From the NCBI GenBank assembly GCA_035637295.1, contig DASPXM010000071.1:3176-67175 (forward strand): a stretch of 64,000 bases of DNA, written 5' to 3'. The position numbers and the translations under genes are program-made. The stretch is from Verrucomicrobiia bacterium. Lineage in GTDB: Bacteria > Desulfobacterota > Binatia > UBA9968. The notes under the pieces were generated by a model. That model searched no databases, was not told the origin of the DNA, and saw only the letters and a list, made by a program, of their open reading frames with translations. Of the stretch, positions 2,887 to 29,682 are shown in pieces (the stretch's first letter is position 1; every line of letters begins with the position of its first letter).

Positions 2887-3867
2887 TTACTTGAAAACTT
2901 TGTCCAGAAAACCGCTCTGATCGAGTTCCTTCAGATAAGCTGTTTGAAAAAAATCCTGGGGCTTGTATTTCTTCGCGATCGGGTCACGGATGGCGATCGC
3001 GTCCAACACGGTTTGCATTCCCTTTTCACTGCCGTAGGGCTTTTTGGGAAGAATCCTGAGCAGGTAATCGTAAGTTTCATCCAGCGCTTCGCGGTCGTCG
3101 AGACGCATCCATTGCTTGAGGGTGGCGAGACTTTCTTCCTTGTTTTTATGAATATAAGCGATTCCTTCAACAAAGCCCCGTAGGAAACTAAGAACCGTCT
3201 GATGATTTTTCTGGGCAAAATCAACAGTCGTATCAACGGAATTGTAGGTCCACGTAATACCTGCTTCTTGAAAGCTGGCAATTTGATTGAAGCCCATTTT
3301 TCTCGCCGTCACGGTGAGCGGCGGAGAAATCACGGTGGCATCGACCGAACCGGATCGAAGCGCGGAAAAGCGTGACGTTTGATCTCCAATTCCCAGAATT
3401 ACCGCTTCCTTGTCAGGATTAATTCCCATGTTTCTTAACGCGATTCGAAGCGACAGGTCGGAGACCGATCCCAGGCGGCTGATGGCGAATTTTTTTCCCT
3501 TGAGCTGGCCGGCTGTTTTAATAGCCGGCGAAGCGACGAGAGTGTACGGCAGCGAGTCAATGAAGACCGCGAGAGTCGCGGTGTCGGCTCCGCGCATTTT
3601 TGCATCGACAATGGAACTGGTCCCGCCAGCATGAAACTGAACCGAACCCGACAACAACGTTTGGACCGCGAGAGGCCCGCCTTGAATTGTGATGACTTCG
3701 GTATCCAATCCGTGTTTCTTGAATAGGCGCCGGTCTTGCGCAACCCAAAGCGGCAGCAACTCACCACTCAAGCCGGCGCTGGCGATTCGAACAGGCGCGG
3801 CGTCGGCGGAGGGCAAAATAGAAAAGACGGCTAACCAGAACACAAGGCCGAACAAGATTCGTCGCAT
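2887..3867 (-). CDS. periplasmic NMT1/THI5-like (NitT/TauT-family) ABC substrate-binding protein, paralog 1
   Basis: ATG at 3865-3867 with GGAGG 5 nt upstream. N-terminal Sec signal peptide (MRRILFGLVFWLAVFSILPSADA). The 36-aa upstream extension in the track ORF is probably not translated. Confidence 0.7.
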   Translation of the reverse strand: MRRILFGLVFWLAVFSILPSADAAPVRIASAGLSGELLPLWVAQDRRLFKKHGLDTEVITIQGGPLAVQTLLSGSVQFHAGGTSSIVDAKMRGADTATLAVFIDSLPYTLVASPAIKTAGQLKGKKFAISRLGSVSDLSLRIALRNMGINPDKEAVILGIGDQTSRFSALRSGSVDATVISPPLTVTARKMGFNQIASFQEAGITWTYNSVDTTVDFAQKNHQTVLSFLRGFVEGIAYIHKNKEESLATLKQWMRLDDREALDETYDYLLRILPKKPYGSEKGMQTVLDAIAIRDPIAKKYKPQDFFQTAYLKELDQSGFLDKVFK

Positions 3868-3973
3868 TTTGCCTCCTTGGCGCTTGGCGCCGGCTCGGGT
3901 TCCTAGTCTCGGGTTAAACGCGAACCCGAAACTCTGAACTCGAAACTGCCGTGCAGCGAGGGAGAACTCTTGC

Positions 3974-4007
3974 ATTCAACATTGAACATTAAACCTTGAA
4001 CTTTGAA
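3974..4007 (-). repeat. five tandem 7-bp repeats (GTTCAAN on minus strand) directly after the amidohydrolase stop codon
   Basis: Plus strand reads ATTCAAC ATTGAAC ATTAAAC CTTGAAC TTTGAAC. The same unit recurs at 25773..25793. Confidence 0.5.
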
Positions 4008-5474
4008 CTAGTTGTACTGAAACTGACTGCCGACCTTTCTCGGAACGTAACGACCGACGGGATCCCCGACCATTTCCATCGCATTGCTTTGGTTCGACCA
4101 TTCCGCGACGATGTTGCCGCGGACAATCGTCATCACCGGCCAGCCTGTGAATTCCCACCCTTCATAGATAGACCAGCCGGAGGAAGTGTAGAGCATATCC
4201 GGCTTCACCGCGGCTTTTTTATTTAGGTCCACAACCACAACGTCTCCGTCCGAGCCGACTCTGATGATTCCTTTTTTGGGAAACAGCCCAAATACTTTGG
4301 CATTGCTCTCGCAACAAACCTCCACCATGCGTTCCAGGGTTATACGTCCCTGGTTAACTCCCAAGCTGAGCATCACTTGCATGTAGGCTTCCACGCGAGA
4401 TGAGAAGCCGCTGACGCTCTTCCAGACGTCACCTTTGACTTCCATTTCGCTGCGCGGCACGCCATGGTTCACGTGATCTGTGCCGACGCAGTGAATTCTT
4501 CCCTCTCGGAGCCCGGTCCAGATTCTTTCAATCGTCTCTTTGCTGCGAAGCGGAACGTTGAGCTTCCAGACGTCCCTGGCGAGAGAGAGGTAGCATGGGG
4601 CCGTCTGCGCGTAAACCGTTAGACCGTCTTTGCGCGCGCGCTGCACTTCGTCCATGGTCTCATCGCAGGTGCAGTGCTGGATGTAAAGCGGACACTTCAA
4701 CAATCCCGCGAAATAAGCAAACTGCCGGACATGGGCCGCCTCCGCGAAATGCGGGGAGCGGTCATCCCAGGCGCCGATGTCCATGCGCCCTTGTTTTTTG
4801 AGCCTCTCTTCGAGAACTCGCACGATGCCCCAGTTTTCGCAGTGAAGGCTCACGATGCCCGGAGGCCCAAGCCTGGCGACGTGCTCCATGCCTCGGTAAA
4901 CAGTTCCGTCGTCGAAGCCGAAAAATCCCATGCGCTTTTGAGAGAGCCATCCCGAATTTTCCGGTCGCATCATGTGGAGATAATACTTGAACGAGGTAAT
5001 GCCGAATTTCTCGGCGTATTCCGGGATCTCCTCGGCCTGGCCGTCATTGGCGAGGATTGGCGTTAGAAAGAAATCTACGCGCGAGTGTTTCTCACCGGCC
5101 TCTTTGAAATTCGGGAACACGTTGTTGAAAGAGACGATATCGCTCGGGTCATTTTCGAGCTTGTGTTTCATCTGCATGTTGGGACTGGTGAGCTGCATGC
5201 CCCAGGTGGTCACGCCCGTGGAAGCGGCGGCTTTGGTTTCGCTGATGAGATCGTCCGTAATCGGCCGGTGGATTCCCAGGTGGACCTCGGGGTCGATCAG
5301 ACCCGGAAGAATGTGCTTTCCGCCGACGTCGATCACCTTCTGCGCGTCAGGCAATGCGGAGTCCTTGCCGACGGCGATAAACTTACCGTCTTTTATCGCC
5401 ACTCCGCCCGCGACAATTCCGTTTGAGGAAACTATATTTCCATTCTTGAGGACCAAATCAGCGCGTTCCGCCAT
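4008..5474 (-). CDS. cyclic amidohydrolase, dihydropyrimidinase/hydantoinase family, paralog 1
   Basis: 488 aa. ATG at 5474 with GGAG 7 nt upstream. Collinear with D-hydantoinases (FKYYLH carboxylated-Lys region, GTDHVNHG, SGFSSRVEA, VFGLFPKKG, GSDGDVVVVDL). The canonical D-x-H-x-H metal motif reads DPEVH. Confidence 0.8.
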   Translation of the reverse strand: MAERADLVLKNGNIVSSNGIVAGGVAIKDGKFIAVGKDSALPDAQKVIDVGGKHILPGLIDPEVHLGIHRPITDDLISETKAAASTGVTTWGMQLTSPNMQMKHKLENDPSDIVSFNNVFPNFKEAGEKHSRVDFFLTPILANDGQAEEIPEYAEKFGITSFKYYLHMMRPENSGWLSQKRMGFFGFDDGTVYRGMEHVARLGPPGIVSLHCENWGIVRVLEERLKKQGRMDIGAWDDRSPHFAEAAHVRQFAYFAGLLKCPLYIQHCTCDETMDEVQRARKDGLTVYAQTAPCYLSLARDVWKLNVPLRSKETIERIWTGLREGRIHCVGTDHVNHGVPRSEMEVKGDVWKSVSGFSSRVEAYMQVMLSLGVNQGRITLERMVEVCCESNAKVFGLFPKKGIIRVGSDGDVVVVDLNKKAAVKPDMLYTSSGWSIYEGWEFTGWPVMTIVRGNIVAEWSNQSNAMEMVGDPVGRYVPRKVGSQFQYN

Positions 5475-5653
5475 CGTCGTTCTCCATTTCGTTGTGTCAA
5501 ATGTTCCGTGTGTCTAACCGCGGAGGCGCAGAGAGCGCGCAGTTTGTGTCTTGCGTCTCGTGTCTAGAGTCTCGGGTTTCCAACTCGAGACCCAAGAACC
5601 AAGACTCAGGACTGCTTCTTTGCGAACTCCGTGTCTCTGTGGTGAATTCCAGA

Positions 5654-7135
5654 TCATATCGGATAGGTTGCGTATCCAAGCTTCCTCGCTTGGTACTTTC
5701 CTCTCGGTTTACTCACCATCTGATGCTTCTGTTCCTTCTCATTCCACTCTGAAGCAACCTCGCCGCGCAAGATAACCTGATACGGCCAGCCGGTGACCTC
5801 CCAACCTTCAAAAATGGACCAGCCGGCGGAGGTCAAGAGCATATTTTTATTGATCGTTTGTTTCTTTTTCAGGTCCACCAGCACGATGTCAGCATCGGCG
5901 CCCACTCGGAGCACGCCTTTCTTCGGAAAAAGACCAAAGGCTTTGGCGGGATTCTCGCAACAAAACTCGACGCAGCGCGGCAAAGTGATTCGTCCCTTAT
6001 TAACGCCTTCGCTCAGCATGACCGGAAGCATCGCTTCGACTCGCGAAGAAAATCCGCTGACGGTTTTCCATACGTCGCCTTTCACTTCCATCTCTTCTCT
6101 CGGCACGCCGTGGTTCACATGATCCGATCCGATGCAATCGACATCGCCATTGGCCACAGCCTTCCAGAGCCGATCCATCGTCTGCCGATCTCGCAGCGGG
6201 ACGTTGATCTTATAGGCATCGTGGTCGAGCGTCAGGTAGACAAAGCCGGTCTCACCGATGATTTTTACTCCTTCGTTGCGAGCGAGTTTGATCTCATCGA
6301 TGCTTTCCTGGGTCGTGGTGTGAACGATGTAGAGAGGGGATTTGGTGACCCGGGCGAGATAGGCGTACTGGCGCACGTGAATGGCTTCGACAAAGTGCGG
6401 ACAACGCTCATCCCATGCAGCGTTGTCCTTGCGCCCCTGTTTGATCAAACGCGCTTGAAGGACACGGATGATTTCCCAGTTTTCCGGATGAATACAGGTG
6501 ATACAGGGAGGACCCAATCGTCCGACGTGCTCCATTCCAATGTAGACGGTCCCGTCGTCGAACCCATACACGCCAATCTTTTTCTGCGGCTCCCACTGTC
6601 CTAAAGTCTCCTGTCCGCGCTTCAGATGAAGATAATATTTGTAGGAGGTCGCGCCATATTTCTCCGCCAGCAGCGGAATCTCTTCGACCTGCGCGTCGTT
6701 CGCGACAAGCGGGGTTAAAAAGTAATCCACCATCGAGTGCTCGTTGCCCATATCCTCGTACGCCGACATGACGTGACTGAAAGGCACGCTGTCCTGAATC
6801 TCTTTAACTGGTTTGAAGGTGCGGCTAATCGTGGGACTTGTGAGCATCATGCCCCAGGTAGTAACTCCCCCCGCGATGGCCGCCTTAGTTTCCGAGACGA
6901 AATCGTCTTGCAACGAACGGTGAACGCCGAGATGCGTCTCCGGGTCGACGACACCCGGCAAAACGTAATTTCCCTTCGCGTCGATTGTCTTTTTTGCCGG
7001 AAAGGCGCTCAAATCGGTTGCAATCGCAGCGATCTTCTCTCCCTTAATTCCGATGCTCGAAGATATGACATCCGGCGGGATAACCAGCTTTCCATTGTTG
7101 ATGACTAAATCAAATTCCATAGGTCCGCTGGCCAT
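5654..7135 (-). CDS. cyclic amidohydrolase, dihydropyrimidinase/hydantoinase family, paralog 2
   Basis: 493 aa. Same motif set (VVDPETHLGVHR, YKYYLH, GSDHVNHG, AFGLFPKKG). ATG at 7135 verified. Confidence 0.8.
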   Translation of the reverse strand: MASGPMEFDLVINNGKLVIPPDVISSSIGIKGEKIAAIATDLSAFPAKKTIDAKGNYVLPGVVDPETHLGVHRSLQDDFVSETKAAIAGGVTTWGMMLTSPTISRTFKPVKEIQDSVPFSHVMSAYEDMGNEHSMVDYFLTPLVANDAQVEEIPLLAEKYGATSYKYYLHLKRGQETLGQWEPQKKIGVYGFDDGTVYIGMEHVGRLGPPCITCIHPENWEIIRVLQARLIKQGRKDNAAWDERCPHFVEAIHVRQYAYLARVTKSPLYIVHTTTQESIDEIKLARNEGVKIIGETGFVYLTLDHDAYKINVPLRDRQTMDRLWKAVANGDVDCIGSDHVNHGVPREEMEVKGDVWKTVSGFSSRVEAMLPVMLSEGVNKGRITLPRCVEFCCENPAKAFGLFPKKGVLRVGADADIVLVDLKKKQTINKNMLLTSAGWSIFEGWEVTGWPYQVILRGEVASEWNEKEQKHQMVSKPRGKYQARKLGYATYPI

Positions 7136-7372
7136 AAGCTATTTTCCCTTTCTGAGATCTTGATTTTAGGTCGATGATGGTTGTTTGACTTCTTATGGAG
7201 CTACAACAGGGAACTGGTTCTTGTCAATTCAATCGAGTCGTGAAGAACCCAAGTATTAATCGCTGCGATGAAGTGGATATATGTGAACTAAACTATGTTG
7301 GCAGAAAAGGTGAGCTGTGATAGAGGAGCAACCCAGTGAAAAGCGCGACAATAATTTGAGGAAATAACTATT

Positions 7373-8845
7373 ATGGCTCTCGGTGAGATGGACCTCGTGA
7401 TCCAACATGGGCAGGTGGTGACCAGTAGTGGGGTGAACGAGCTGGCAATCGGTATCAAGGACGGGAGGATTGCCGCTTTAACTTCGGGAACCGAATCGGT
7501 CGAGGCGCGGCAAACTATTGATGCTGAGGGCAAATATGTCTTGCCCGGGATTGTGGACCCCGAAAATCACATGGGAACGCATCGTCCACTGAAAGACAGC
7601 TTAAATAGTGAGACGCAAGCTGCAGCCGCCGGCGGAGTAACTACCTGGGGAATGATGCAGGCGAGTCCCAAGCTCAGAAAAAAATATATCCATGAACCTG
7701 AACCGAGAGATGTTGTCCCGTTTTCAGAGGTCATGCCGGAGTTCATCGAGATCGTTGAATCGCATTCTTTTGTGGATATTTTTCTTACCGGCTTTATTAC
7801 AACTGATGAACAGGCACTCGACATTCCGAAAGTGGCCCGAGAATTCGGCGTCACGTCCTTTAAATATTATCTTCACATCATGCAGGGAGCACGGACTCAG
7901 GCTCAGTGGGCCGGGCGCGAGCGAGGCGGCTGGCTGGGCTTCGATGACGGAACGATTTATCTGGGGATGGAGAAAGCAGCCGAAATCGGACCTCCCGGAA
8001 TCATCTGCATCCACCCTGAGAACTATGAGATCGCCCGCATATTCGAGGATCGGCTCAAGCGGGCGGGACGGACGGACATGGCCGCTTGGGATGAGCGCTC
8101 ACCTCATTTTTGTGAAGCGGGACATGTGAGGACTTATGCTTATTACGCAGGCGTCACCGGCTGCCCGCTCTACGTCGTGCATACGACGACACAAGAATCC
8201 ATAGACGAGATCCTCAAAGCCAGAGCGGAAGGCGTTAAGATTTACAGTCAAACCGGCCACCATTATCTGACCTTGTCGCACGATGTGTGGAAGATCAACG
8301 TTCCGCTTCGCGATGAAGCGACGATGGCTCGACTGTGGGAAGCTTTGCGAGCGGGGCACATCGACTGCATCGGGACTGACCACGTCGATTGGGGAATGTC
8401 GCGCGATCAGATGGACAAGGGCAATGTCTGGGAAACCAGCAGCGGCTTCCCGTCGCGAGTGGAGGCGTATTTGCCGGTGATGCTGACCGAAGTTCACAAA
8501 GGAAAGATTTCTCTGGAAAAACTGGTCCAGGTGTGTTGTGAGAATCCCGCACGGATTTTCGGCCTCTACCCCAAAAAGGGAGCGATCGGCGTTGGCTCCG
8601 ATGCCGATTTGGTGATCGTCGATCTCGAGCGAACCGCGAAGGTGACACAGGACATGATCTACAGCTCCGCTGGCTGGTCAATCTGGGAAGGCAAAGAGCT
8701 TAAAGGCTGGCCGGTCATGACCATTCTTCGCGGAAGGGTCATCATGGAGTGGCCCGACGGCGCGCCGCACGCGATTATCATGAGTGAAAAGCCTGCCGGC
8801 CGCTATGTGCCGCGCAAACCCGGCCACCAGCTTTATCCGATCTAA
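7373..8845 (+). CDS. cyclic amidohydrolase, dihydropyrimidinase/hydantoinase family, paralog 3
   Basis: 490 aa. ATG at 7373 with GAGGAAA 9 nt upstream. Motifs IVDPENHMGTHR, FKYYLH, GTDHVDWG, IFGLYPKKG. Confidence 0.8.
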   Translation: MALGEMDLVIQHGQVVTSSGVNELAIGIKDGRIAALTSGTESVEARQTIDAEGKYVLPGIVDPENHMGTHRPLKDSLNSETQAAAAGGVTTWGMMQASPKLRKKYIHEPEPRDVVPFSEVMPEFIEIVESHSFVDIFLTGFITTDEQALDIPKVAREFGVTSFKYYLHIMQGARTQAQWAGRERGGWLGFDDGTIYLGMEKAAEIGPPGIICIHPENYEIARIFEDRLKRAGRTDMAAWDERSPHFCEAGHVRTYAYYAGVTGCPLYVVHTTTQESIDEILKARAEGVKIYSQTGHHYLTLSHDVWKINVPLRDEATMARLWEALRAGHIDCIGTDHVDWGMSRDQMDKGNVWETSSGFPSRVEAYLPVMLTEVHKGKISLEKLVQVCCENPARIFGLYPKKGAIGVGSDADLVIVDLERTAKVTQDMIYSSAGWSIWEGKELKGWPVMTILRGRVIMEWPDGAPHAIIMSEKPAGRYVPRKPGHQLYPI

Positions 8846-8892
8846 CTCAGCGAAGCGAAATTTTTTTCGGTACTGACTGGAGGAAATTGCTT

Positions 8893-9855
8893 ATGCTGCG
8901 ACGCTGCCAAGTGATGGTCTTGTTCCTGATTGTTTTCTTTATCCCCGCGCTCGTCTTCGCTCAGAGGGTCAGAACCAGCTATGGCGGCACGTCCGGCTAC
9001 AACGTACCGCTTTGGGTGGCGCATGAGGCCGGTTTTTTTAAGAAGCAAGGACTCACTTCTGAGCTGATTCTCATCAGCGGCGACGCCGCGAGTTTGCAGG
9101 CGCTCTTGGCCAACGATCTCGATTTCACCAACGCCGCGGGAACGACGCCCATCCAAGGAACGCTTCAAGGCGCCGACTTTGTCATTGTCGCCTCGTCCTA
9201 CAATCTGATGCCGTACAGTTTCGTCGTCACTCCCGACATTCGCACCGCGGCTGACCTGAAAGGGAAACGAATGGCTGTTTCTCGGCTGGGCGGGATCACT
9301 GAATTTGGCGGCCGGCTGACCTTGGAGAAACTCGGTCTAGGGCAGAACGATATGACGCTGATTCAGGCCGGCGCCGATGCGCCGCGGATCGCCGCGCTCC
9401 AGTCCGGCGCCGTCGCGGCGACGGTGCTTGCCCCGCCGGGCCTCTACGTCGCGACTGCCCTCGGAAATAAAGTGTTGGCCGACCTCGGCGATCTGGGCGT
9501 CAAGTATCCTTCATCGGTGATCGTCACACGGCGCGCTTATCTGGCGCAAAATCGTCCGACCGTCAAAAAGTACCTGGCCGCATTTACCGAGGGGTTGCAT
9601 CTTTATGCGGAGAACAAAGATTTCGCGCTCGGCGTCATGCAGAAATACGCCAAGCTCAAAGACCGCGACGCTATGTCCAGGTCCCATGACTATTTTGTGA
9701 AGAACACAACGCTTGTCCCTCTTACCGATCCGGTGGCGATCAAGAATGCATTGGGCGATAAAGCTGGAGCCCGCAACCCCGAGGATTTTTACGACAACTC
9801 GCTGCTGCAAGAATTGGTCAAAGAAGGGTTCGTCGATAAGCTGAGAAAAAAATAG
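8893..9855 (+). CDS. periplasmic NMT1/THI5-like ABC substrate-binding protein, paralog 2
   Basis: ATG at 8893 with GGAGG 9 nt upstream; the track start at 8887 is TTG. Signal peptide MLRRCQVMVLFLIVFFIPALVFAQR. Shares GTSGYNVPLWVAHEAGFFKKQGL with paralog 3. Confidence 0.7.
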   Translation: MLRRCQVMVLFLIVFFIPALVFAQRVRTSYGGTSGYNVPLWVAHEAGFFKKQGLTSELILISGDAASLQALLANDLDFTNAAGTTPIQGTLQGADFVIVASSYNLMPYSFVVTPDIRTAADLKGKRMAVSRLGGITEFGGRLTLEKLGLGQNDMTLIQAGADAPRIAALQSGAVAATVLAPPGLYVATALGNKVLADLGDLGVKYPSSVIVTRRAYLAQNRPTVKKYLAAFTEGLHLYAENKDFALGVMQKYAKLKDRDAMSRSHDYFVKNTTLVPLTDPVAIKNALGDKAGARNPEDFYDNSLLQELVKEGFVDKLRKK

Positions 9856-9912: not shown

Positions 9913-11186
9913 TTGTCCGTGGCCCTGACCGAATCAGATAAGCGTGTAATAGATCTGATCGACGAGAAGGAACTGGTCGATCTGGCCGTTGCAATGGGCA
10001 ATATCACGGCGCCGTCTGGCTACGAACAACCGATGGCGGACTTCGTACTCCGCTGGTTAACTGAAAACGGTTTTGAGAGATCATTCCAACAAGCGATCTG
10101 TGATGGCCGGTCGAACACGATCGGCATTCTCAACGGCCAAGGCGGAGGCCGAAACCTGATTTTTCAACAGTCACATGGACTCCGAACAAGGCATGCCGAT
10201 GCGTGTGGACGAACCACCGCCGCCGGGTCCCACGGCGCGTGTCGACTATGATAAGAAGCGCATCTTCGGTGTGGCGGTGCAAAACGATCGCGGCCCGATG
10301 GCGGCGTTTATGATCGCCACCAAGGCGCTCAAGAATAGCGGCGTTCGGCTGGCCGGCGACGTTATCATGACCATGGTCGTAGGTGAGATCGGCATGGGCC
10401 CAGTGGATGAATTCCGTGGCGCCAAATATATCGGCAAAGGGTTCGGCAGCCGCCACGCGGTGACCCACGGCGTCAACGGCGATTTTGCTTTGATTGCCGA
10501 GACCACCGACTTTGGCGTCACTTGGATAGAAGCCGGCGCGGCGTACTTTAAAATCACGTTGGAAGGGCGGAGTTTCTACACGCCGCGCATCCCGCCGCGC
10601 GGCGCCGTTGAAGACAATCCCAACGCGCTGATCAAAATGATTCCCGTGATCGAAGCGATCGAGAAATGGGCAGTGGAGTACGAGCACAAATATACAATCG
10701 ATTACCCGGTAGGGAAGATGGTCCCGAAAGTGAGCATTGGTGCGATCCGTGCCGGCGCGCCCTATAAGCCGAGCACGACGCCTCGCAGTTGCAGTATTTA
10801 CGTAGACGTGCGCGTGCCGCCGCCGGTGCCGTTCTCGCAAGTGGAAAGGGAATTAAAGCGAGTCGTCAGCGCGGTGGGACTGGGTGGAAGCGTCGAGTGT
10901 TTCATGGCGCGCAAAGGCTACGAAGGCAAAAATGTCGAACCGTTGGTCGATGCGATTTGCCGCCGCCCATGTGGCGGTGCGAGGTAGCCAGCCGCCACCG
11001 GTAGATACGCCGGAAACCAGTATGTGGCGTGATATCAACATTTTCAATGAAGTCGGCATCCCCGCTGCAACTTTCGGCATGCCGCGCAAGAGCGCGCCCG
11101 ATGTGCCCGAACGGTTTATCGAGATTCAGGACATTGTCGATGCGGCGAAGATGTACGCGCTGGTCGCGCTCAAGATCTGTGGCTGA
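9913..11186 (+). pseudogene. M20-family metallopeptidase/deacylase (ArgE/DapE-like) disrupted by two frameshifts
   Basis: One M20 protein is split across three track ORFs (9913-10251, 10175-10987, 10884-11186). The first shift is at the T5 run 10161-10165 (LIF|NSHMD motif lost). The second is near 10961-10975. Confidence 0.5.
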
Positions 11187-11214
11187 CCGTCGTTTACCGC
11201 AAGGTTTCAAATTT

Positions 11215-13320
11215 ATGAAATACGTTGTGGGCGTGGATATCGGCGGCACCTTTACCGATTGCGTGGTGGTGGACGAAGCCGGGCGGATCACCGTCGGCAA
11301 AGCGCTTTCGACCCCCGACGATTTTTCCCGCGGCGCAGTCAACTCGGCGGCCGATGCCGCGAGCAACCTCGGCCTTTTGAATGCCAGTGAATTGCTCAAA
11401 CGCTCGCGCCTGTTTTTTCATGCCTGCACCATCGGCGATAACACGTTGATCACTCGCACCGGCGCCAGGACCGGCTTGATCATGACCAAAGGATTCGGCG
11501 ACAGCCTGCACATCATGCGCGGCAAGGTCGCTGAAGGGTTGACGGAAAACGAAACCGCGCACCGTGCCGCGCTTTATAAGCCCGAGCCGTTTGTGCCGCG
11601 CAAATTGGTCGAAGAAGTGCCGGAGCGGATCGATTACAAAGGCCAGGAGCTGATCCGCCTCGATGTCGGCGTGGCGGAAAGGGCGATCGACCGGCTCGTC
11701 GCCAATGGCGCAGAATCGATTGCCGTGTGCTTTCTCTGGTCGATCGTGAACGATGCCCATGAAAAGCACATGGCCGAGATTCTAAAGAAGAAAAACCCCA
11801 ACCTGTTCCACACGCTGTCGAGCGAAGTCGCGCCTTACATCGGCGAATACGAACGTTCGGCGACCACGGTTTTCAACGCCTATATCGGGCCGAAGATTTC
11901 CACCTACCTGCAAAACCTGCAAAGCGTCCTGAAAGACCAGGGCCTGCAGCGTGAGCCCTTGATCATGCAGGCCTACGGCGGCGTATTGGGCATCGACGCG
12001 ACCTGCAAGAACGCCGTCGGCGTGATCGAGTCGGGGCCCGCCGCCGGCATCGTCGGTACGCGTTTTTTAGGCGAGCATATCGGCGAGAAAAATATTCTTG
12101 CCACGGATATGGGCGGTACGACTTTCAAAGTCAGCCTGGTGCGCCATGGCGTGATCGAACGCGACTACAAACCGGTCATTCTGCGCTACAACATTCTCTC
12201 GACCAAGATCTGGGTTGAATCCATCGGCGCCGGCGGCGGCAGCATCGCCTGGATCGATCCGGAGACGGGCCTGCTCAAAGTCGGACCGCAGGGAGCCGGG
12301 GCAGCGCCGGGACCGGTCTGCTACGACGTCGGCGGCAACGAACCGACGGTCTCCGATGCCGATCTGGTGCTCGGTTATTTGAACGAGAATTATTTTCTCG
12401 GCGGCCGGATGAAGCTCAACAAAGCCAAGACGCTGGCCGCCATCCGCGAAAAAATCGCCAAGCCTCTCAAGATGACCGAAGTGGAGGCCGCGAGCGGCAT
12501 CTATCGCATCGCCAATTCGCATATGAGCGATCTGATTCGGAAAGCGACCGTGGAGAAAGGGCATGATCCGCGAAATTTCGTGCTCTTCGCCTTCGGCGGC
12601 GCTGCCCCGGTGCACGCCAGCCGCTATGCCGCGGAGCTGGGCGTGCGCCAGGTGGTGATTCCGCTCACCGCCTCCGTGCATGGCGCCACCGGTCTGATTA
12701 GTTCCGACGTAGTCTATGAGTACGGCAAGTCGGAGCATCTGCTCCTGCCGGTTGAGCCGGCGAGAGTCAACCAGATTTTCAGCGAATTGCTCGAACGCGC
12801 ATACAAGGACCTGGCGGCGGCGGGTTTCGCACCGAACGAGATTCACGTCATGCGCAGCGTGGACATGCGCTATCGCTATCAGATTCATGAGTTGAACGTT
12901 CCGTTCTCTCCTGGTCTAGACAGCATCTCCGACGCGGACATGGCCGCGTCGTCCGATCTCTTTGACGAGATGTACGAAAAAGCTTTCGGCCAGGGCTCGG
13001 GGTACCGCGAAGCCGGCAAAGAAATTCTCACGTTGCGGCTTACAGCTATGGGGTTGCTCAAGAAACCGGACATCAAGGCTGAAACGGTTGCCCCGAGGGA
13101 CGGCAGTGTCGCGCTCAAGGGTGAGCGTCAAGTCTACTTCGAGGAGAACCGCAGTTTCACTGCGACGCGCGTCTACGATTTCAACCAACTACGGCCGGGA
13201 GCTGAATTCGCCGGCCCGGCGATTATCGAAACTCCAGTGACCACTGTGGTTGTAAATCCCCACGACCGAGCGGCCATGGATGGCTACCGCAACATCAGAA
13301 TTTACGTCGGAGGAGCATGA
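11215..13320 (+). CDS. hyuA: hydantoinase/oxoprolinase family protein, A subunit (HyuA-like, ATP-dependent)
   Basis: ATG at 11215. Typical N-terminus MKYVVGVDIGGTFTDCVVVDE. About 700 aa. Stop overlaps the start of the B subunit. Confidence 0.8.
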   Translation: MKYVVGVDIGGTFTDCVVVDEAGRITVGKALSTPDDFSRGAVNSAADAASNLGLLNASELLKRSRLFFHACTIGDNTLITRTGARTGLIMTKGFGDSLHIMRGKVAEGLTENETAHRAALYKPEPFVPRKLVEEVPERIDYKGQELIRLDVGVAERAIDRLVANGAESIAVCFLWSIVNDAHEKHMAEILKKKNPNLFHTLSSEVAPYIGEYERSATTVFNAYIGPKISTYLQNLQSVLKDQGLQREPLIMQAYGGVLGIDATCKNAVGVIESGPAAGIVGTRFLGEHIGEKNILATDMGGTTFKVSLVRHGVIERDYKPVILRYNILSTKIWVESIGAGGGSIAWIDPETGLLKVGPQGAGAAPGPVCYDVGGNEPTVSDADLVLGYLNENYFLGGRMKLNKAKTLAAIREKIAKPLKMTEVEAASGIYRIANSHMSDLIRKATVEKGHDPRNFVLFAFGGAAPVHASRYAAELGVRQVVIPLTASVHGATGLISSDVVYEYGKSEHLLLPVEPARVNQIFSELLERAYKDLAAAGFAPNEIHVMRSVDMRYRYQIHELNVPFSPGLDSISDADMAASSDLFDEMYEKAFGQGSGYREAGKEILTLRLTAMGLLKKPDIKAETVAPRDGSVALKGERQVYFEENRSFTATRVYDFNQLRPGAEFAGPAIIETPVTTVVVNPHDRAAMDGYRNIRIYVGGA

Positions 13321-15152
13321 GGGTGACGTCAAATCCCATTGTGACGAGCGTCGATCCAATTACTTTCGAGATTCTCTCGCATCGCGTCTACCAGATCGCC
13401 AAGGAGATGGGCACGACCCTGGAACGCGTCGGCGGCACGGTGAACACGACGCAGATGCACGATTACATGGCTGCGCTTTATCTGGCTAACGGCGACGTGC
13501 TCTGCGCCGGCGATGCCATGGGTTGGCATGTGGCCTGCGCCGGAGTCGCGGTCAAGCGCATCATCGAGCGCTTCGAGAAGGACGGGGGTATCCACCCCGA
13601 CGATATTTTTCTCCTCAACGATCCTTACGTAGCGGCGATCCATCAGTCGGATGTCTACGTGGTGTCGCCGATTCATTTCAAAGGCAAACTGATGGGATGG
13701 AGCGCAACCTTTGTCCACGTGATGGATATCGGCGCTATGTCCCCTGGCGGCAATTCGCCCAACGCCACCGAGATCTGCCACGAAGGGATTCGCATTCCCG
13801 GCATCAAGCTGGTCGAACGGGGCGAACTGCGCAAGGATTTATTCGATGCGTTTATCAACATGACGCGGCAGCCGGTGATGGTCGGGCTCGATCTCAAATG
13901 CGAGATCGCGGCGAATAACGTGGCGAAATCGCGAATTCAGGCTTTATACGAGCAATTCGGCTCTGAGTTGGTCGCCGCCGTCTCACAGGAGATGTTGCAT
14001 TATTCCGAAGCGATCTTAAGAAAGAGAATCGGTGAGATCCCCGACGGCGAGTGGCGCGAGACGGGTAGTATCCATGCGGGCGACACCTGGAAGGTCGATG
14101 TCGCGCTCAAGAAAACCGGAGATCGTTTGCTGTTTGACTTCACCGGCAGCAGCCCCCAGGCGAAAAAGGGGATCAACTTACCGTACCATGCGACGTTCGG
14201 TGCGTGTTACGAGGCGATTCTCTCGACGATGGCGTACGACCTTCCGAAAAATCACGGCGCCCTCAGACCCATCGAAGTGATCGCGCTCCCCGGGACGGTG
14301 GTCAACTGCACAGCGCCGGCGCCTGTTTCGCTCAACACCACCTCCGCCGGGTCGACGGCGAAGTTCGTCGCCAATTCGGTCATCATCCAGATGCTCGCCA
14401 CCAGTGAAAAGTGGCGCGGCGAACTCATGGCGCTCAACGTCGGCCATCGGCTGGCACGCCACGCCGGCGTCAATCAATATGGCAACTATTATGTGTCGAC
14501 ACTTTCCGAAGGCGCCCTCGACGGCACCGGCGCGCGCTCCGACAGAGACGGTGATGATACCGGCGATGGCCTGAGCTCGCACAATATCGAATGGGTCGAG
14601 GCGAACTTCCCTCTGCTTTATTTGTTCCGACGCAACACCCGCGGGGGCGGCGGCGCCGGCAAATTCCGCGGCGGCGCCGGCAGCGAATCTGCGCTCACTG
14701 TGCATGATGCGCCGCAAGGTAAAATTAGGGGCGTAGCGCTCGGTGTGGCCGGCTTGCGAAATTCCGGGCAAGGGTTATTCGGCGGCTATCCCGGCGCGCC
14801 GAGCCTGCTGACGCTTATCCAGGGCGCCCGCGTCGAAGAAACCATTGCCGCAGATCAGGCGCCGGACGAACTCGCCGCGCTCGGCGGCGACAGCAGACTG
14901 TTGCCGTACTGTGAGTTTGATCTCGGCCGCAACGATATTCTTTACATGCGTATGGCGAGCGGCGGCGGCTACGGCGATCCCCTCGAACGTGAACCGCAGC
15001 AGGTCTTGCGCGACGTCGATGAGGGCGTCGTGTCGCGCGAAGAAGCGCGGGCGATCTACGGCGTGGAGATCGATGGCGATGAGCCGAGGCTGAATCAAAC
15101 GGCGACGGATAAACTGCGGTCCGACCTGTTGAAGCAGCGGTTGCAGGAGTAA
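13317..15152 (+). CDS. hyuB: hydantoinase B/oxoprolinase family protein (HyuB-like)
   Basis: 611 aa. N-terminus VDPITFEILSHRVYQIAKEMG is typical of HyuB / acetone-carboxylase alpha-like proteins. 4-nt overlap with hyuA. Confidence 0.8.
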   Translation: MRVTSNPIVTSVDPITFEILSHRVYQIAKEMGTTLERVGGTVNTTQMHDYMAALYLANGDVLCAGDAMGWHVACAGVAVKRIIERFEKDGGIHPDDIFLLNDPYVAAIHQSDVYVVSPIHFKGKLMGWSATFVHVMDIGAMSPGGNSPNATEICHEGIRIPGIKLVERGELRKDLFDAFINMTRQPVMVGLDLKCEIAANNVAKSRIQALYEQFGSELVAAVSQEMLHYSEAILRKRIGEIPDGEWRETGSIHAGDTWKVDVALKKTGDRLLFDFTGSSPQAKKGINLPYHATFGACYEAILSTMAYDLPKNHGALRPIEVIALPGTVVNCTAPAPVSLNTTSAGSTAKFVANSVIIQMLATSEKWRGELMALNVGHRLARHAGVNQYGNYYVSTLSEGALDGTGARSDRDGDDTGDGLSSHNIEWVEANFPLLYLFRRNTRGGGGAGKFRGGAGSESALTVHDAPQGKIRGVALGVAGLRNSGQGLFGGYPGAPSLLTLIQGARVEETIAADQAPDELAALGGDSRLLPYCEFDLGRNDILYMRMASGGGYGDPLEREPQQVLRDVDEGVVSREEARAIYGVEIDGDEPRLNQTATDKLRSDLLKQRLQE

Positions 15153-15851: not shown

Positions 15852-17291
15852 TTACAGCACCGGATTTCTTTTGTGCCACTCGGTCGCGCCTTCGTAGGCT
15901 GCCGCCACTTGAAAGACGACGTCTTCGCGAAACGGCGGCGCGACGATCTGCATACCGATAGGCAAACCGCCGGACGAAAAGCCGCAGCAAATGCTCATAT
16001 CCGGAAGTCCCGTGACGTTGAAGGGAATCGTGTAGCGGGTCAGAAAATTTCCGGCGCGGTCCTGCAAGTTGATGCGCTTGCCGTCGGCTTCGATATAGCC
16101 GCGGTTGCAATCGTCGATGGTCGGCGCCGGGCTGAAGATAGTCGGCGCGACGATGATCTGCACGGATTTGAAAGCTTCGTCGAACTCCTGACAGATCAAA
16201 CGACGCACCCTCTGAGCTTGAACGTACACGGGTGCGGGAGTCAAAAGCCCGGCAATCAAGCTGTAGAGAAGGCCCGGGCTGTAGTCTCTTGGCCGCGTGC
16301 GGAGATAGTGGTCATGGTCGGAATTCGCTTCCGGGCGCGTGCTCGCCGCTTGCGCCGCGGGGACCAGATCGATATGCGGTATTTCGATCTCCTGAGTTCT
16401 CATGCCGAGTGATTTTAGAGTGTTCATAGCTTTGTCGACTGTTCGGCGCACTTCACTGACGATGCCCTGTTCGAAGTATCCTTTGATCAGACCGATCTTC
16501 ATACCTTTGACCGGAGCACCGAGGGCTTTGGTGTAGTTCACAGTCGGCGCGTCGGAGCTGAGGGGGTCCTTCGGGTCATAGCCGGCAGTATGGTTCAACA
16601 GCAGCGCGCAATCTCTGACGCTGCGCGTGAGTATGCCGAAGTGATTGACGGTATAGCCGCCGGTGCCCGCAACGCCGCCGTAGGTACTGATTCTGCCGAA
16701 CGTCGGCTTGAGCCCGACGGTTCCGCACAACGATGCCGGATTGCGCACTGAGCCTGCGCTGTCGGTGCCGATGGATCCCAGGCATAGGCTCGCGGCCACG
16801 GCGACGGCCGAACCGCTGCTCGATCCACCGGGTATTCGCGTGGTATCCCAGGGATTCAACGGCGTGCCGTAAAACGGGTTGATGCTGTTACTCCCCTTGG
16901 CCCATTCGTGCATGTTGGTTTTGCCAAGAATAATGGCGCCGGCCGCTTTGAGCCTTTCGATCACCGTGGCGTCATGATCCGGCACCCAATCCGCCAGGAT
17001 TTTCGATCCCGCGGTGGTGATCACACCTTTGGTCGCGATGTTGTCCTTGATCGAAAGGGGAATGCCATGGAGCGGCCCGCGATATTTCCCCTGGCGAATT
17101 TCCTTCTCGGCTTTCCTGGCGGCGGCAAGGGCGCCGTCCTCGGCCATCGCGAGGTAGACGTTGAGTTTGGGATTGAGCTTGCCGATTCTTTCGAGATAAC
17201 TTTTGGTGATTTCCAGCGGCGAGATTTGCTTTTTCTTGAGTAGCGGGCCAAGCGCGCTGATCGTCAAGCCTTCGAGATCGAGAGTCTTCAT
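15852..17291 (-). CDS. amidase-signature enzyme, GatA/AtzE-like
   Basis: 479 aa from the ATG at 17289-17291 (the 649-aa track ORF carries a spurious N-extension). GIPLSIKDNIATKG ... GGSSSGSAVAVAA signature. Start overlaps the stop of the upstream small gene by 4 nt. Confidence 0.8.
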   Translation of the reverse strand: MKTLDLEGLTISALGPLLKKKQISPLEITKSYLERIGKLNPKLNVYLAMAEDGALAAARKAEKEIRQGKYRGPLHGIPLSIKDNIATKGVITTAGSKILADWVPDHDATVIERLKAAGAIILGKTNMHEWAKGSNSINPFYGTPLNPWDTTRIPGGSSSGSAVAVAASLCLGSIGTDSAGSVRNPASLCGTVGLKPTFGRISTYGGVAGTGGYTVNHFGILTRSVRDCALLLNHTAGYDPKDPLSSDAPTVNYTKALGAPVKGMKIGLIKGYFEQGIVSEVRRTVDKAMNTLKSLGMRTQEIEIPHIDLVPAAQAASTRPEANSDHDHYLRTRPRDYSPGLLYSLIAGLLTPAPVYVQAQRVRRLICQEFDEAFKSVQIIVAPTIFSPAPTIDDCNRGYIEADGKRINLQDRAGNFLTRYTIPFNVTGLPDMSICCGFSSGGLPIGMQIVAPPFREDVVFQVAAAYEGATEWHKRNPVL

Positions 17292-17491
17292 TTTTTGCCT
17301 TTCTTGGCCGCGGGAATTTTTCGCACCCGCTTGTCGATCATGGTAAGCGGCGTGATGCCGTCGACATTCACTTCGAACAACGGCTTGAACAAGAGCGCTG
17401 CTTCTTCGGCCTGCTGCGCCACGAGGTCGATTTCCTTGTCGGTAAGCTTGAATTGGTATTCGTCGTTGAGTCGTCTTACTGTGTCTTGCAT
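17288..17491 (-). CDS. GatC-like small protein (AtzG-like partner of the amidase)
   Basis: 67 aa. LTDKEIDLVAQQAEEAALLFKPLFEVNVDGITP resembles the Glu-tRNA amidotransferase C-subunit fold. Translationally coupled (ATGA overlap) to the amidase. No gatB in the window. Confidence 0.55.
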   Translation of the reverse strand: MQDTVRRLNDEYQFKLTDKEIDLVAQQAEEAALLFKPLFEVNVDGITPLTMIDKRVRKIPAAKKGKK

Positions 17492-17724
17492 AGTTTTGAC
17501 CTACTTTCCGGTTGAGAGTTGTGGTTCTACAATCGCGTTGTTGGTTTCTACAATCGGGTGTCCGAGCTGTCAACGACCCGGTGCTGCCTGGTTCGTTCTG
17601 ACAACCGCCTTGACGTCGAGAGAATCGATGCGATAGGAAGGTGATGCTTTGGCGTTGAGGTTTTGAACCGGTCGATAACCGCAGAGCAACAACCGCTTGC
17701 AACAATGCAGGAAACGCGACAGCG

Positions 17725-18696
17725 ATGTTTCGAGTCATTCTTCCCACGCTCTCATTTCTGGTGATTCTAATCCTGCCGCGCATCGGCCATGGCCAAGCCA
17801 TCAGGATCAGTTACGCCGGCACCTCCGGTTACAACGTTCCCATCTGGGTGACCCACGAGGCGGGCCTGTTCAAGAAGCATGGTTTGAACAGCGAACTGAT
17901 CATGATCTCCGGCGCGGCGCAGAGCATGCAGGCGATGCTCGCCAATGAAACTCAAGTGGCCAACACGTCGGGTTCAGCGCCGATCAATGCAAAGCTCAAA
18001 GGCGCCGATGCGGTCATCGTCGCCAGCTCCTATGATCTGATTCCCTATGGCATCGTGGTTCATAAAGACATCCGTATGCCGGCGGACCTCAAGGGAAAGA
18101 GGATCGCGATATCGCGCTTCGGCGGCATTACCGAGCTGAGTGTGAAATTGGCCGTCGAGAAATTCGGCTTGAACGAAAAGGACGTGACGATGATCCAGGC
18201 CGGCGCCGACGCGCAGCGGATTCCTGCGGTGGCCACAGGCGCAGTCGCCGCTTCGGTGCTCGCGCCGCCGGGACTTTTCGCGGCTAGCGCGCAAGGGCTC
18301 CGGGTGCTCGCTGACTTGAGCGATCTGGGCGCTAAATATCCGACTTCGGTATTCTTCGTCATGCGTTCCTATCTGACGCAGCAGCGCGTGGCGCTAAAAA
18401 GGTTTCTCTTGGCCTTGATCGAAGGGCTGCATGTCTATGTCAACGACAAGGATTTTTCCATGCGCGTGATGCAGAAGTACACCAAGCTAGGTGATCCTGA
18501 GATCGTCGCGAAGACGCAAGATTATTACTCTAAGAAGACCCTTGTGGTGCCGTTTACAGACGCGGCGGCGATCAAGAATGCCTTGCCTGCGGATGCCGGC
18601 GCGGGGCGTAAGCCGGAAGAGTTTTACGATAATTCGCTCATCCAGGAAATCGTCAAAGACGGATTCGTCGAGCAGCTCAAGAAAAACATGCGCTAG
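17725..18696 (+). CDS. periplasmic NMT1/THI5-like ABC substrate-binding protein, paralog 3
   Basis: ATG at 17725. Signal peptide MFRVILPTLSFLVILILPRIGHGQA. 13 nt upstream of amidohydrolase paralog 4. Confidence 0.7.
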   Translation: MFRVILPTLSFLVILILPRIGHGQAIRISYAGTSGYNVPIWVTHEAGLFKKHGLNSELIMISGAAQSMQAMLANETQVANTSGSAPINAKLKGADAVIVASSYDLIPYGIVVHKDIRMPADLKGKRIAISRFGGITELSVKLAVEKFGLNEKDVTMIQAGADAQRIPAVATGAVAASVLAPPGLFAASAQGLRVLADLSDLGAKYPTSVFFVMRSYLTQQRVALKRFLLALIEGLHVYVNDKDFSMRVMQKYTKLGDPEIVAKTQDYYSKKTLVVPFTDAAAIKNALPADAGAGRKPEEFYDNSLIQEIVKDGFVEQLKKNMR

Positions 18697-18708: not shown

Positions 18709-20160
18709 ATGAACCAGGTCGACGTGCTTCTAAAGAATGGCAAAATTGTCACCCAGGGCAAGGTGATCGAGGGCTTCGTCGCGGTGGACGGTGAAAAAAT
18801 CGTCACCGTCGGACAGGGCGATCACGCGCCTGACGCGCGCAAGGCCATCGATCTCAAAGGTCGAGTATTGATTCCCGGTGTGGTCGATCCCGAATGCCAT
18901 TTTGGCAGCCACCGTTGGGTTGGCGATGAGTTCGACTCGGAAACCCGCGGCGCTGTCGCCTACGGCATCACCACCTGGGGGTTCATGCAGCCGAGCGCCA
19001 ACATGGGACAACCGTACAAAGCTGAAAAGACCGCGGAGGAAGTACCGCTTTACGCCGAAGTGTTCGATCTGTTCAAAAATATGGGCGAAGAGCGCTCGAT
19101 GGTTGATTTCATCTTGACGCCGAAAATTTTGAAGGACGAACATGCTTTGGAAATTCCCCGGCTGGCGCGCGATTACGGCATCACTTCGTTCAAGTATCAA
19201 CTGCATCTGATGCATCCGGAGCGCACGGCGACTTACTGGCCGCAAAGCAAAAGTCAGGGCTATTTCGGTTACGACGACGGCACGATCTATCTCGGCATGG
19301 AAGCAGTCGCCAAACTGGGTCCGCCGGCGATTGTCTGCATGCACTGCGAGAACTGGGAGATCGCCCGAATCTTCGAGGAACGCCTGCTCAAAGCCGGCCG
19401 CAAAGAATACAAAGTCTGGAATGAGCGCTCGCCGCATTTTTGCGAAGCCGGCCATGTCCATGCTTACACGTACTACGCGCGCATCCTAAAATGCCCGCTC
19501 TATATCCAGCACACCACCACCCCTGAAACCATCGAAGAGATCACGCGCGCCAAAGGGGACGGTGCCACTGTGTACGCGCAGACCGGTCCGCACTATCTCA
19601 GCCTCACCGAAGACGCGTGGCGCATCAACGTACCGCTGCGCAGCGCCGAAACGATCGAAGTCCTCTGGCAGGCGCTCGCTGATGGCCGTATCGATACGGT
19701 CGGCAGCGACCACACCAACACCGGCAGATCGCGGAAAGAGATGGAAGTGCCCGGCGATATCTTTGCCACCCGGACCGGGTTTTCTTCCCGCGGCGAGGCG
19801 GCCTTGCCCGTGATGCTGAGTGACGGAGTGAACCGCGGAAGGATTTCACTGGTTCGAATGGTTCAGGTCTGCTGTGAAAACACGGCGCGAATTTTTGGAC
19901 TTTATCCGAAAAAGGGTGTGATCGCGCCGGGCTCCGACGCCGACCTCGTGGTCGTGGACCTCGATCGCACCGTCACCGTGACCAACGATATGGTTCATAC
20001 GTCGGCCGGCTGGACACTTTGGGAAGGCAGACAAATGAAAGGCTGGCCGATCATGACCATGCTGCGCGGAAAAATCATCGCCGAGTGGCCCGAAGGCGGC
20101 AAGAGACCGGAAATCGTCTCGAAACCGTTTGGCCGCTACCAGCCGCGTTCGCTAGGGTAA
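18709..20160 (+). CDS. cyclic amidohydrolase, dihydropyrimidinase/hydantoinase family, paralog 4
   Basis: 483 aa. ATG at 18709 with GAGGAGAGG upstream. Motifs VVDPECHFGSHR, FKYQLH, GSDHTNTG, IFGLYPKKG. Confidence 0.8.
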   Translation: MNQVDVLLKNGKIVTQGKVIEGFVAVDGEKIVTVGQGDHAPDARKAIDLKGRVLIPGVVDPECHFGSHRWVGDEFDSETRGAVAYGITTWGFMQPSANMGQPYKAEKTAEEVPLYAEVFDLFKNMGEERSMVDFILTPKILKDEHALEIPRLARDYGITSFKYQLHLMHPERTATYWPQSKSQGYFGYDDGTIYLGMEAVAKLGPPAIVCMHCENWEIARIFEERLLKAGRKEYKVWNERSPHFCEAGHVHAYTYYARILKCPLYIQHTTTPETIEEITRAKGDGATVYAQTGPHYLSLTEDAWRINVPLRSAETIEVLWQALADGRIDTVGSDHTNTGRSRKEMEVPGDIFATRTGFSSRGEAALPVMLSDGVNRGRISLVRMVQVCCENTARIFGLYPKKGVIAPGSDADLVVVDLDRTVTVTNDMVHTSAGWTLWEGRQMKGWPIMTMLRGKIIAEWPEGGKRPEIVSKPFGRYQPRSLG

Positions 20161-29630: not shown

Positions 29631-29682
29631 TCGCGCGACCTGCTCTTCATGGTAGAAATTTTTTTGACATAGCTCCGCCACG

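Follow-up and report, generated by a model that had tools for sequence, protein, structure and literature searches.

Cyclic amidohydrolases are textbook binuclear metalloenzymes that are also used as industrial biocatalysts, as in the hydantoinase process. Their active site, composed of four His residues, one Asp and a carboxylated Lys, is treated as almost universal (PMC4437985). Glu-containing sites are found in other amidohydrolases: in 2,6-DHBD, Glu8-x-His10, together with His164 and Asp287, binds Mn2+/Zn2+, and the Glu/His/Asp sites of LigW and 2,3-DHBD bind Mn2+/Mg2+ (PMC7894528, Table 1). Here we describe four paralogous cyclic amidohydrolase genes (P1-P4) encoded in a 64,000-nucleotide stretch of a Binatia genome (assembly GCA_035637295.1, contig DASPXM010000071.1, positions 3,176 to 67,175), hereafter the window. 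In all four proteins, Glu stands in place of the first His ligand in strand 1. These proteins, denoted ExH after the Glu-x-His pair, belong to a distinct, uncharacterized clade of the cyclic amidohydrolase family (hydantoinase/dihydropyrimidinase/allantoinase/dihydroorotase) that comes from uncultured bacteria of soil and groundwater and has a variant metal site, and do not represent a new kind of system; their putative function is, probably, to act on imported nitrogen heterocycles. The genes are listed in Table 1, and residues are numbered according to P2.

A carboxylate in place of the first strand-1 histidine

A preliminary description of this DNA reported the motif D-P-E-x-H in all four paralogs, and translation of the open reading frames (ORFs) reproduces the quoted strings exactly: LIDPEVHLGIHR in P1, VVDPETHLGVHR in P2, IVDPENHMGTHR in P3 and VVDPECHFGSHR in P4. 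The back-translated D-P-E-x-H pattern, GAYCCNGARNNNCAY, matches the window four times, compared to 0.34 matches expected and with at least four matches in 0 of 100 shuffles; all four matches lie in frame within P1-P4, and a tblastn search detects four such genes in the window and no others. P2 is located 180 nt upstream of P1. The paralogs had been estimated to be about 50% identical, and the measured pairwise identities are 49.5-55.2%. None of the four has a signal peptide. Pfam Amidohydro_1/Amidohydro_3 profiles score above the gathering threshold in all of them, and there is no match to Amidohydro_2.

The substitution is located by alignment to enzymes of solved structure. In a phmmer (HMMER) comparison to PDB sequences, the P2 segment 'PGVVDPETHLG' aligns with 'PGGIDPHTHLD' of the D-hydantoinase 1K1D with no gaps and at the highest posterior probability, so that Asp64, Glu66 and His68 of P2 correspond to Asp56, His58 and His60 of 1K1D. 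Glu thus falls on His58, the first strand-1 ligand, as originally proposed. Further along the chain, Lys166, His216, His272 and Asp338 correspond to Lys150, His183, His239 and Asp315, respectively. The same equivalences, with the same ligand columns, were recovered in the multiple alignment that the preliminary description had called for, a MAFFT alignment of 174 sequences including 1K1D. The five other canonical ligands (the second His, the carboxylatable Lys, two His and the Asp) are retained in all four paralogs, including the two later His and the Asp as stated at the outset, and are invariant in the 25 of 25 and 49 of 49 members of the Glu clade that were aligned. The canonical set of four His, Asp and carboxylated Lys is accordingly replaced in ExH by three His, Glu, Asp and Lys. 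The Lys region was initially given as FKYYLH; the Lys itself is present in all four paralogs, but this exact string occurs only in P1 and P3, with YKYYLH in P2 and FKYQLH in P4.

An AlphaFold2 model of P2 (pLDDT 90.7, pTM 0.92) superimposes on hydantoinases, dihydropyrimidinases (DHPases), allantoinases and CRMPs with TM scores of ~0.8 at 24-31% identity, and no solved structure in the PDB is closer to the ExH proteins than ~31% identity. The Pfam matches, the phmmer similarity (E value of 2e-58) and the fold similarity (TM ~0.8) place P1-P4 in the cyclic amidohydrolase branch. Given the gap-free alignment to 1K1D, the agreement of the MAFFT alignment and the superposition of the P2 model, the canonical His is not merely offset.

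The second His, four residues downstream, to which attention had also been drawn, recurs in all four paralogs (H-x-G-x-H) but in only 26 of 49 and 61 of 120 clade members. It is not a feature of the clade and was, for this reason, rejected as a substitute ligand.

Frequency and phylogeny of the Glu variant

All 120 best homologs of P2 contain D-x-E-x-H. A divergent member yielded 106 further homologs: Glu is present in 101, three have Asp ('DPDGH') and keep all other motifs, and the remaining two are an N-terminally truncated fragment and a protein with DPEAH behind a Cys that the search pattern disallowed. The conserved feature at position 66 is a carboxylate, namely, Glu or, rarely, Asp. Altogether, a search for other Glu-x-His members, as had been suggested, yielded 236 distinct proteins with the motif (representatives of 90% identity clusters). 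When 1.84 billion representatives at 50% identity were scanned exhaustively with HMMER, the top seven full-length matches (at least 41% identity) all have Glu, and from a match with 43% identity and 367 bits downward, all full-length matches have His except for two Gln variants.

In a neighbor-joining tree of 174 sequences, from which the diagnostic columns were removed, a single clade of 51 tips contains all 49 sequences with Glu, and its sister group consists of eight sequences, all with His. The Glu clade is nested among His-x-His relatives. Judging from this topology, the His-to-Glu change is ancestral and of single origin, which bears out the view of the preliminary description. The most recent common ancestor of the four window paralogs covers 34 of the 51 clade tips, and each paralog has its own close orthologs in other metagenome-assembled genomes (MAGs), the nearest to P1 being P0022, so that the duplications are old.

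The two clade members without Glu (P0140 and P0226, both metagenomic, the latter on a 121-kb contig) have Gln at this position and are nested inside the Glu clade. They also lack Lys166, His272 and Asp338 and appear to be CRMP-like, non-catalytic bacterial derivatives of the clade; given this nested position and degeneracy, they were rejected as intermediates of a His to Gln to Glu path. In this clade, genuine degeneration removes Lys, His and Asp jointly, which shows that the Glu proteins have not decayed. The prevalence of Glu (120 of 120 and 101 of 106, plus three Asp) and the invariance of the other ligands likewise fit the earlier contention that the change is functional, and the pattern of sequence conservation indicates that Glu is maintained by selection.

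Co-varying residues and the substrate pocket

A scan for alignment columns conserved in at least 90% of the Glu clade (49 sequences) and in at most 15% of the His relatives (122 sequences) identified, besides Glu66, Trp94, Thr141, His170, Trp181, His253, Val312, Ser364, Arg365, Trp439 and Trp464. Arg365 is present in 49 of 49 Glu clade members, whereas none of the 122 His relatives has Arg or Lys at this position. Val312 of the clade corresponds to Pro in 117 of the 122 relatives, and Thr141 to His in 71 of the 122. Trp181 lies within an inserted loop that is missing from the relatives, and Trp464 in a C-terminal extension of the clade.

The substrate-binding residues of dihydropyrimidinase are Tyr155, Ser289 and Asn337 (PMC4437985). 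None of the three is present in P1-P4, where the equivalents are Leu/Met/Ile171, Asn311 and Ser360. Across the clade, the Tyr155 equivalent is replaced mainly by Leu (21 sequences) or Met (17), compared to Tyr in 76 of the 122 H-x-H relatives. In the eight His-type sisters, Arg365 and Val312 are both absent (0/8 each) and the Tyr is kept in seven. Arg365, Val312 and the loss of Tyr track the Glu, which, as far as the alignment can tell, is part of a wider remodeling of the active-site region. Two other candidates for compensating ligands, His170 and His253, were rejected: the H-x-H sisters already have His253 in four of eight cases and His170 in one of eight, so neither residue makes up for the missing His. 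A signature for the ExH clade can be proposed as D-x-[ED]-x-H, Lys166, His216, His272, Asp338-His339, N-V-P-L-R and S-R-x-E (with Arg365); every element is found in all four paralogs.

Genomic context and taxonomic distribution

The four genes lie in an amidohydrolase island (~1.6-32.7 kb; Table 1). The island ends at ~32.7 kb because housekeeping genes occupy the region beyond: the segment 33091-64000 encodes SmpB, panB/panC, a deoxynucleoside kinase, GH3 and an HtrA-like protease, with a dcw-type cluster including a PBP transpeptidase and a Mur ligase at the far end of the window. Three of the four ExH paralogs directly abut a gene for an NMT1/SsuA-type binding protein. The window additionally contains three other amidohydrolase-superfamily genes, none of the ExH type.

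Table 1. Amidohydrolase island of the window: ExH paralogs and neighboring genes
Feature	Positions	Strand	Details
ExH paralog 1 (P1)	4008-5474	-	488 aa cyclic amidohydrolase; LIDPEVH; Glu63 = GAG 5288-5286; no signal peptide
ExH paralog 2 (P2)	5654-7135	-	493 aa; VVDPETH; Glu66 = GAG 6940-6938
ExH paralog 3 (P3)	7373-8845	+	490 aa; IVDPENH; Glu64 = GAA 7562-7564; divergent from P2
ExH paralog 4 (P4)	18709-20160	+	483 aa; VVDPECH; Glu62 = GAA 18892-18894
NMT1/SsuA-type solute-binding protein	2887-3975	-	signal peptide; 33 nt downstream of P1
NMT1/SsuA-type solute-binding protein	8887-9855	+	signal peptide; 42 nt downstream of P3
NMT1/SsuA-type solute-binding protein	17725-18696	+	signal peptide; 12 nt upstream of P4
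NMT1-type binding protein, fourth	28611-29723	-	signal peptide
UbiD-family decarboxylase	29683-31149	-	
TRZ/ATZ-type aminohydrolase (Amidohydro_1)	20183-21538	+	canonical 'SAHSH'; 22 nt downstream of P4; recurrent ExH partner
Second TRZ/ATZ-type deaminase	27085-28563		canonical H-x-H
Amidohydro_2 (ACMSD-like)	25974-27035	+	starts 'GAIDADAHV', D-x-H; no NCBIfam model match
M20 (ArgE/YgeY-like), deacylase/carbamoylase-type	9913-11186	+	split in three frames: 9937-10203, 10079-10957, 10962-11180
HyuA/HyuB, ATP-dependent hydantoinase/oxoprolinase-type lactamase	11029-15152	+	
Amidase-signature enzyme (AtzE/GatA-like)	15852-17801	-	longest ORF
MmgE/PrpD family	24314-25715	-	split in two overlapping ORFs in different frames: N-terminal domain (profile positions 2-164) in 25161-25715, rest in 24314-25297
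Split TPP-enzyme subunit pairs (sulfopyruvate/phosphonopyruvate-decarboxylase-like alpha and beta)	1649-2766, 31646-32748	+	bracket the island

Several of the neighbors call for comment. All four ExH ORFs are intact, and two neighboring genes in the island are frameshifted. The first is the M20 gene, for which homologs in related MAGs (L066, L014 and L007) are intact ORFs of 424 aa; the window copy is either a pseudogene or the product of two assembly frameshifts. The second is the MmgE/PrpD gene. The true start of HyuA is probably near 11215. The amidase ORF has an N-terminal extension of ~170-195 aa without a domain match that overlaps the start of the binding-protein gene at 17725; homologs are ~481 aa long (L001), and the true start is probably internal. 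The Amidohydro_2 protein has D-x-H where its family usually has H-x-H or E-x-H and so represents a second non-canonical strand-1 motif in the island. The TPP-enzyme subunit pairs that flank the island recur in 9 of 77 related loci. The four binding proteins with signal peptides lack ABC partners: no ABC permease or ATPase gene was found in the window, nor was an XDH-type gene, whereas complete ABC operons adjoin ExH in distant loci (L081-L084).

Among the related loci, the genes counted near ExH encode the NMT1 binding protein (38 of 77), Amidohydro_1 (22 of 77), UbiD (18 of 77), amidase, HyuA and M20 (12 of 77 each; the HyuA/HyuB pair in 10-12 of 77), the XDH-type Mo-hydroxylase (11 of 80) and the CN-hydrolase (8 of 80). 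In complete Binatia chromosomes, the amidase gene directly follows the ExH gene, and one such chromosome has the order Mo-hydroxylase-UbiD-ExH-NMT1, then ExH-amidase-CN-hydrolase and, further on, HyuA-HyuB. Divergent subclades have operons of the form ExH-ABC ATPase-permease-NMT1-Amidohydro_1, and a subclade with the Asp variant has two Mo-hydroxylase genes followed by ExH-NMT1-UbiD-cyclase-HyuB-HyuA. These neighborhoods follow the logic of a catabolic route in which N-heterocycles are taken up, hydroxylated or decarboxylated, opened hydrolytically and then deamidated or decarbamoylated.

In 185,579 species-representative genomes, a scan that included the DPExH peptide among its query patterns found 220 relatives. 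The best 80 of the 220 all come from MAGs, mostly of Candidatus Binatia or 'Deltaproteobacteria', plus Chloroflexi, Thaumarchaeota and Udaeobacter; these best 80 matches include no cultured isolates and no Clostridia or Bacilli. The retrieved relatives are all from MAGs or metagenomic contigs, with generic source names throughout. A Binatia MAG shares ~95% identity with the window at this gene.

Putative metal center and alternative explanations

We favor, with modest confidence, the interpretation that P1-P4 are catalytically competent, cytoplasmic, ring-opening N-heterocycle amidohydrolases with a Glu-ligated and probably still binuclear center. Metal ligation by Glu, the binuclear site, the metal preference and the substrate class are all inferred from sequence comparison and analogy. 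Under this scenario, a carboxylate, mostly Glu and rarely Asp, would have taken the place of the first strand-1 His of the alpha site in a single ancestral event, and Glu66 most likely still ligates the alpha metal, so that the alpha site would comprise Glu66, His68, Lys166 and Asp338. Carboxylated Lys166 would bridge the two metals, with Lys166, His216 and His272 forming the beta site. By analogy with known Glu-x-His sites, this more oxygen-rich and more negative site would shift the preference to harder ions, favoring Mn2+, Fe2+, Co2+ or Mg2+ over Zn2+, and the bridging hydroxide would be retuned. The added negative charge may be balanced by Arg365 or, alternatively, Arg365 might bind an anionic substrate.

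The pocket seems to have been rebuilt along with the ligand switch, through the gain of Arg365, the replacement of Pro by Val312, the loss of the oxyanion/substrate-binding Tyr155 and the inserted loop. Given this rebuilt pocket, the substrates are predicted to be neither dihydropyrimidines nor 5-substituted hydantoins; other N-heterocyclic lactams or ureides, which may be anionic, are more likely candidates. The compound handled by each paralog would enter the cell through the exported NMT1/SsuA-type binding protein encoded next to that paralog, and the ring-opened product would pass to the neighboring amidase, M20 or CN-hydrolase enzymes.

Several considerations weigh against this interpretation. 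The genome scan is biased toward the motif because DPExH served as a search pattern, and it cannot count relatives without Glu. Arg365, Val312 and His170 are placed near the active site through alignment to the substrate loops of DHPase. The neighborhood evidence comes mostly from related MAG lineages, with loci that are not fully independent, and the island in the window itself contains no ABC permease and ATPase genes. Finally, the extra negative charge could destabilize the alpha site, resulting in a mononuclear enzyme with the beta metal only.

The last point leads to an alternative that we consider unlikely, namely, that the center is mononuclear, with either the beta metal only (Lys166, His216 and His272) or the alpha metal only, like the Glu-x-His decarboxylases, and that Glu66 functions not as a metal ligand but as a general base, proton shuttle or substrate ligand. 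E. coli NagA, which has lost H-x-H, indeed works with a single beta-site metal. The known Glu-x-His sites of the superfamily are mononuclear (PMC7894528). Furthermore, Arg365 arises together with Glu66 and could pair with Glu66 in place of a metal. Lys166, both beta-site His, Asp338 and His68, however, are invariant in all 49 aligned clade members and make up the full two-metal complement. Mononuclear alpha-site amidohydrolases normally lack the bridging Lys, and renal dipeptidase shows that a binuclear site is compatible with a carboxylate as one member of the H-x-H pair (H-x-D). The invariance of Lys166 and both beta-site His thus favors a binuclear over a mononuclear site. The altered metal center envisaged in the preliminary description is plausible on the precedent of the Glu-x-His sites in Mn/Zn/Mg decarboxylases (PMC7894528), whereas its mononuclear variant is disfavored.

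A bolder version of the Glu-ligated binuclear site, which strikes us as rather unlikely, posits a new mechanistic subtype in which a carboxy-Lys-bridged binuclear Mn/Fe center with a Glu-x-His alpha site would hydrolyze oxidized, resonance-stabilized N-heterocyclic lactams directly, with no need to reduce or oxygenate the ring first. The substrates might then be products of the Mo-hydroxylase and UbiD, e.g., pyridone, uracil, xanthine or barbiturate-type rings. If true, this would imply oxygen-independent mineralization of N-heteroaromatics by Binatia and further uncultured bacteria of soil and groundwater.

More improbable still is that the chemistry itself is new, with the Glu/Arg-remodeled site adapted to something other than the hydrolysis of a reduced cyclic amide, through either direct, xanthinase-like opening of oxidized or aromatic lactams produced by Mo-hydroxylases and UbiD decarboxylases or C-C cleavage or decarboxylation as in the Glu-x-His Amidohydro_2 enzymes. 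The clostridial purine pathway uses, in addition to a xanthine amidohydrolase, a decarboxylase and further amidohydrolases. The xanthine amidohydrolase ('xanthinase') of this pathway was reportedly described by Tong et al. in 2023, a study cited in PMC12507026. Direct hydrolysis of xanthine by anaerobes is documented for a pathway reported from Clostridia and Bacilli (PMC12507026). The recurrence of ExH with XDH-type hydroxylases and UbiD, with no obvious ring reductase nearby, is consistent with such chemistry, as is the loss of all three DHPase substrate-binding residues. The support comes from context, though, and the retained carboxy-Lys and beta site are typical of hydrolysis. The amidase, M20 or CN-hydrolase genes that follow ExH are arranged as in ordinary hydantoinase-carbamoylase pathways, and the Clostridia and Bacilli from which the xanthinase pathway is reported are absent from the best 80 genome matches.

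It is highly improbable that P1-P4 are inactive, CRMP-like pseudoenzymes that lost a ligand under relaxed selection after gene amplification. The many paralogs per genome, the two frameshifted neighbors and the degenerate Gln branch inside the clade would fit such a history, but the other catalytic residues are invariant across ~50% sequence divergence, the carboxylate that took the place of His is itself invariant, none of the four ORFs is disrupted and each has conserved orthologs of its own, and the truly degenerate Gln members drop Lys, His and Asp jointly. An alignment artefact, with the canonical His present but offset, e.g., as the +4 His of the H-x-G-x-H that follows Glu in all four paralogs, is scarcely credible, given that Asp64 and His68 fall on Asp56 and His60 of 1K1D without gaps and do so again with MAFFT, that the +4 His is missing from about half of the clade, and that His170 and His253, already present in some His-x-His sisters, provide no compensation.

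Comparison with known amidohydrolases

The residue evidence argues against the automatic label 'dihydropyrimidinase/dihydroorotase' for these proteins. A large, multi-copy clade with a conserved carboxylate and a rebuilt pocket would add a new active-site subtype to the family, could supply enzymes with a different metal preference and substrate range, and would point to routes of N-heterocycle catabolism that are still unexplored in Binatia and in uncultured lineages allied to them.

With respect to curated families, all NCBIfam models score below their cutoffs for P1-P4. The D-hydantoinase/DHPase model TIGR02033 gives 242.5, 267.3, 242.5 and 242.6 bits for P1-P4, respectively, compared to a cutoff of 393.25; the allantoinase models (TIGR03178/PRK06189) give 195-225 bits against 357.85; and among the dihydroorotase models (TIGR00857 and PRK models), pyrC_multi gives 152-195 bits against 279, with all others far below cutoff. 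Literature searches for dihydropyrimidinases of Binatia, for an ExH motif and for a cyclic amidohydrolase with Glu in place of His found nothing relevant. Such a clade is absent from the curated models, solved structures and papers located, with the xanthinase compared by description only; the possibility raised earlier that the Glu variant is already characterized in a named subfamily thus found no support in NCBIfam, the PDB or the literature.

The more distant comparisons are as follows. Xanthinase resembles the proposed ExH enzymes in hydrolytic ring opening directly on an oxidized N-heterocycle, a comparison that was made by description and taxonomy only, and the taxonomy of the genome matches of the clade argues against close orthology. 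Dihydrophloroglucinol cyclohydrolase was rejected as a relative because it belongs to the 'cyclase'/isatin-hydrolase family. The Amidohydro_2 decarboxylases (2,6-DHBD, LigW and 2,3-DHBD) likewise have a carboxylate at the first strand-1 ligand position but differ from ExH in belonging to another Pfam family, in being mononuclear, in lacking the carboxylated Lys and in performing C-C chemistry; ExH proteins keep the bridging Lys and the beta-site His and share with the Amidohydro_2/ACMSD-like enzymes the Glu position only. The CRMPs and DHPase-like non-enzymes have the same fold and have also lost metal ligands, but decay of this type strips several ligands and is observed here in the two Gln members and not in the window paralogs, in which a single ligand is changed, to a ligand-competent residue.

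The closest relatives are the canonical cyclic amidohydrolases. The L-hydantoinase 1GKR, the best phmmer match, shares with ExH the fold and the ligand set save for the first His; it has the canonical 'DEHVH', and the allantoinases 3E74 and 8HFD also have H-x-H, unlike ExH. The D-hydantoinases and DHPases (1K1D, 3SFW and 1NFG; TIGR02033) have the same two-domain fold (TM ~0.8), provide sequence matches with 27-31% identity, and share at aligned positions the second His, the carboxylatable Lys, the two beta-site His and the catalytic Asp; moreover, a gene for a carbamoylase or amidase typically comes next after a D-hydantoinase gene, as is the case with ExH. They differ in having His where ExH has Glu and in Tyr155, Ser289 and Asn337, which are replaced by Leu/Met/Ile, Asn and Ser in ExH, whereas Arg365, Val312, Trp94, His170, His253, the Trp181 loop and the C-terminal extension with Trp464 are found, in this comparison, in ExH only.

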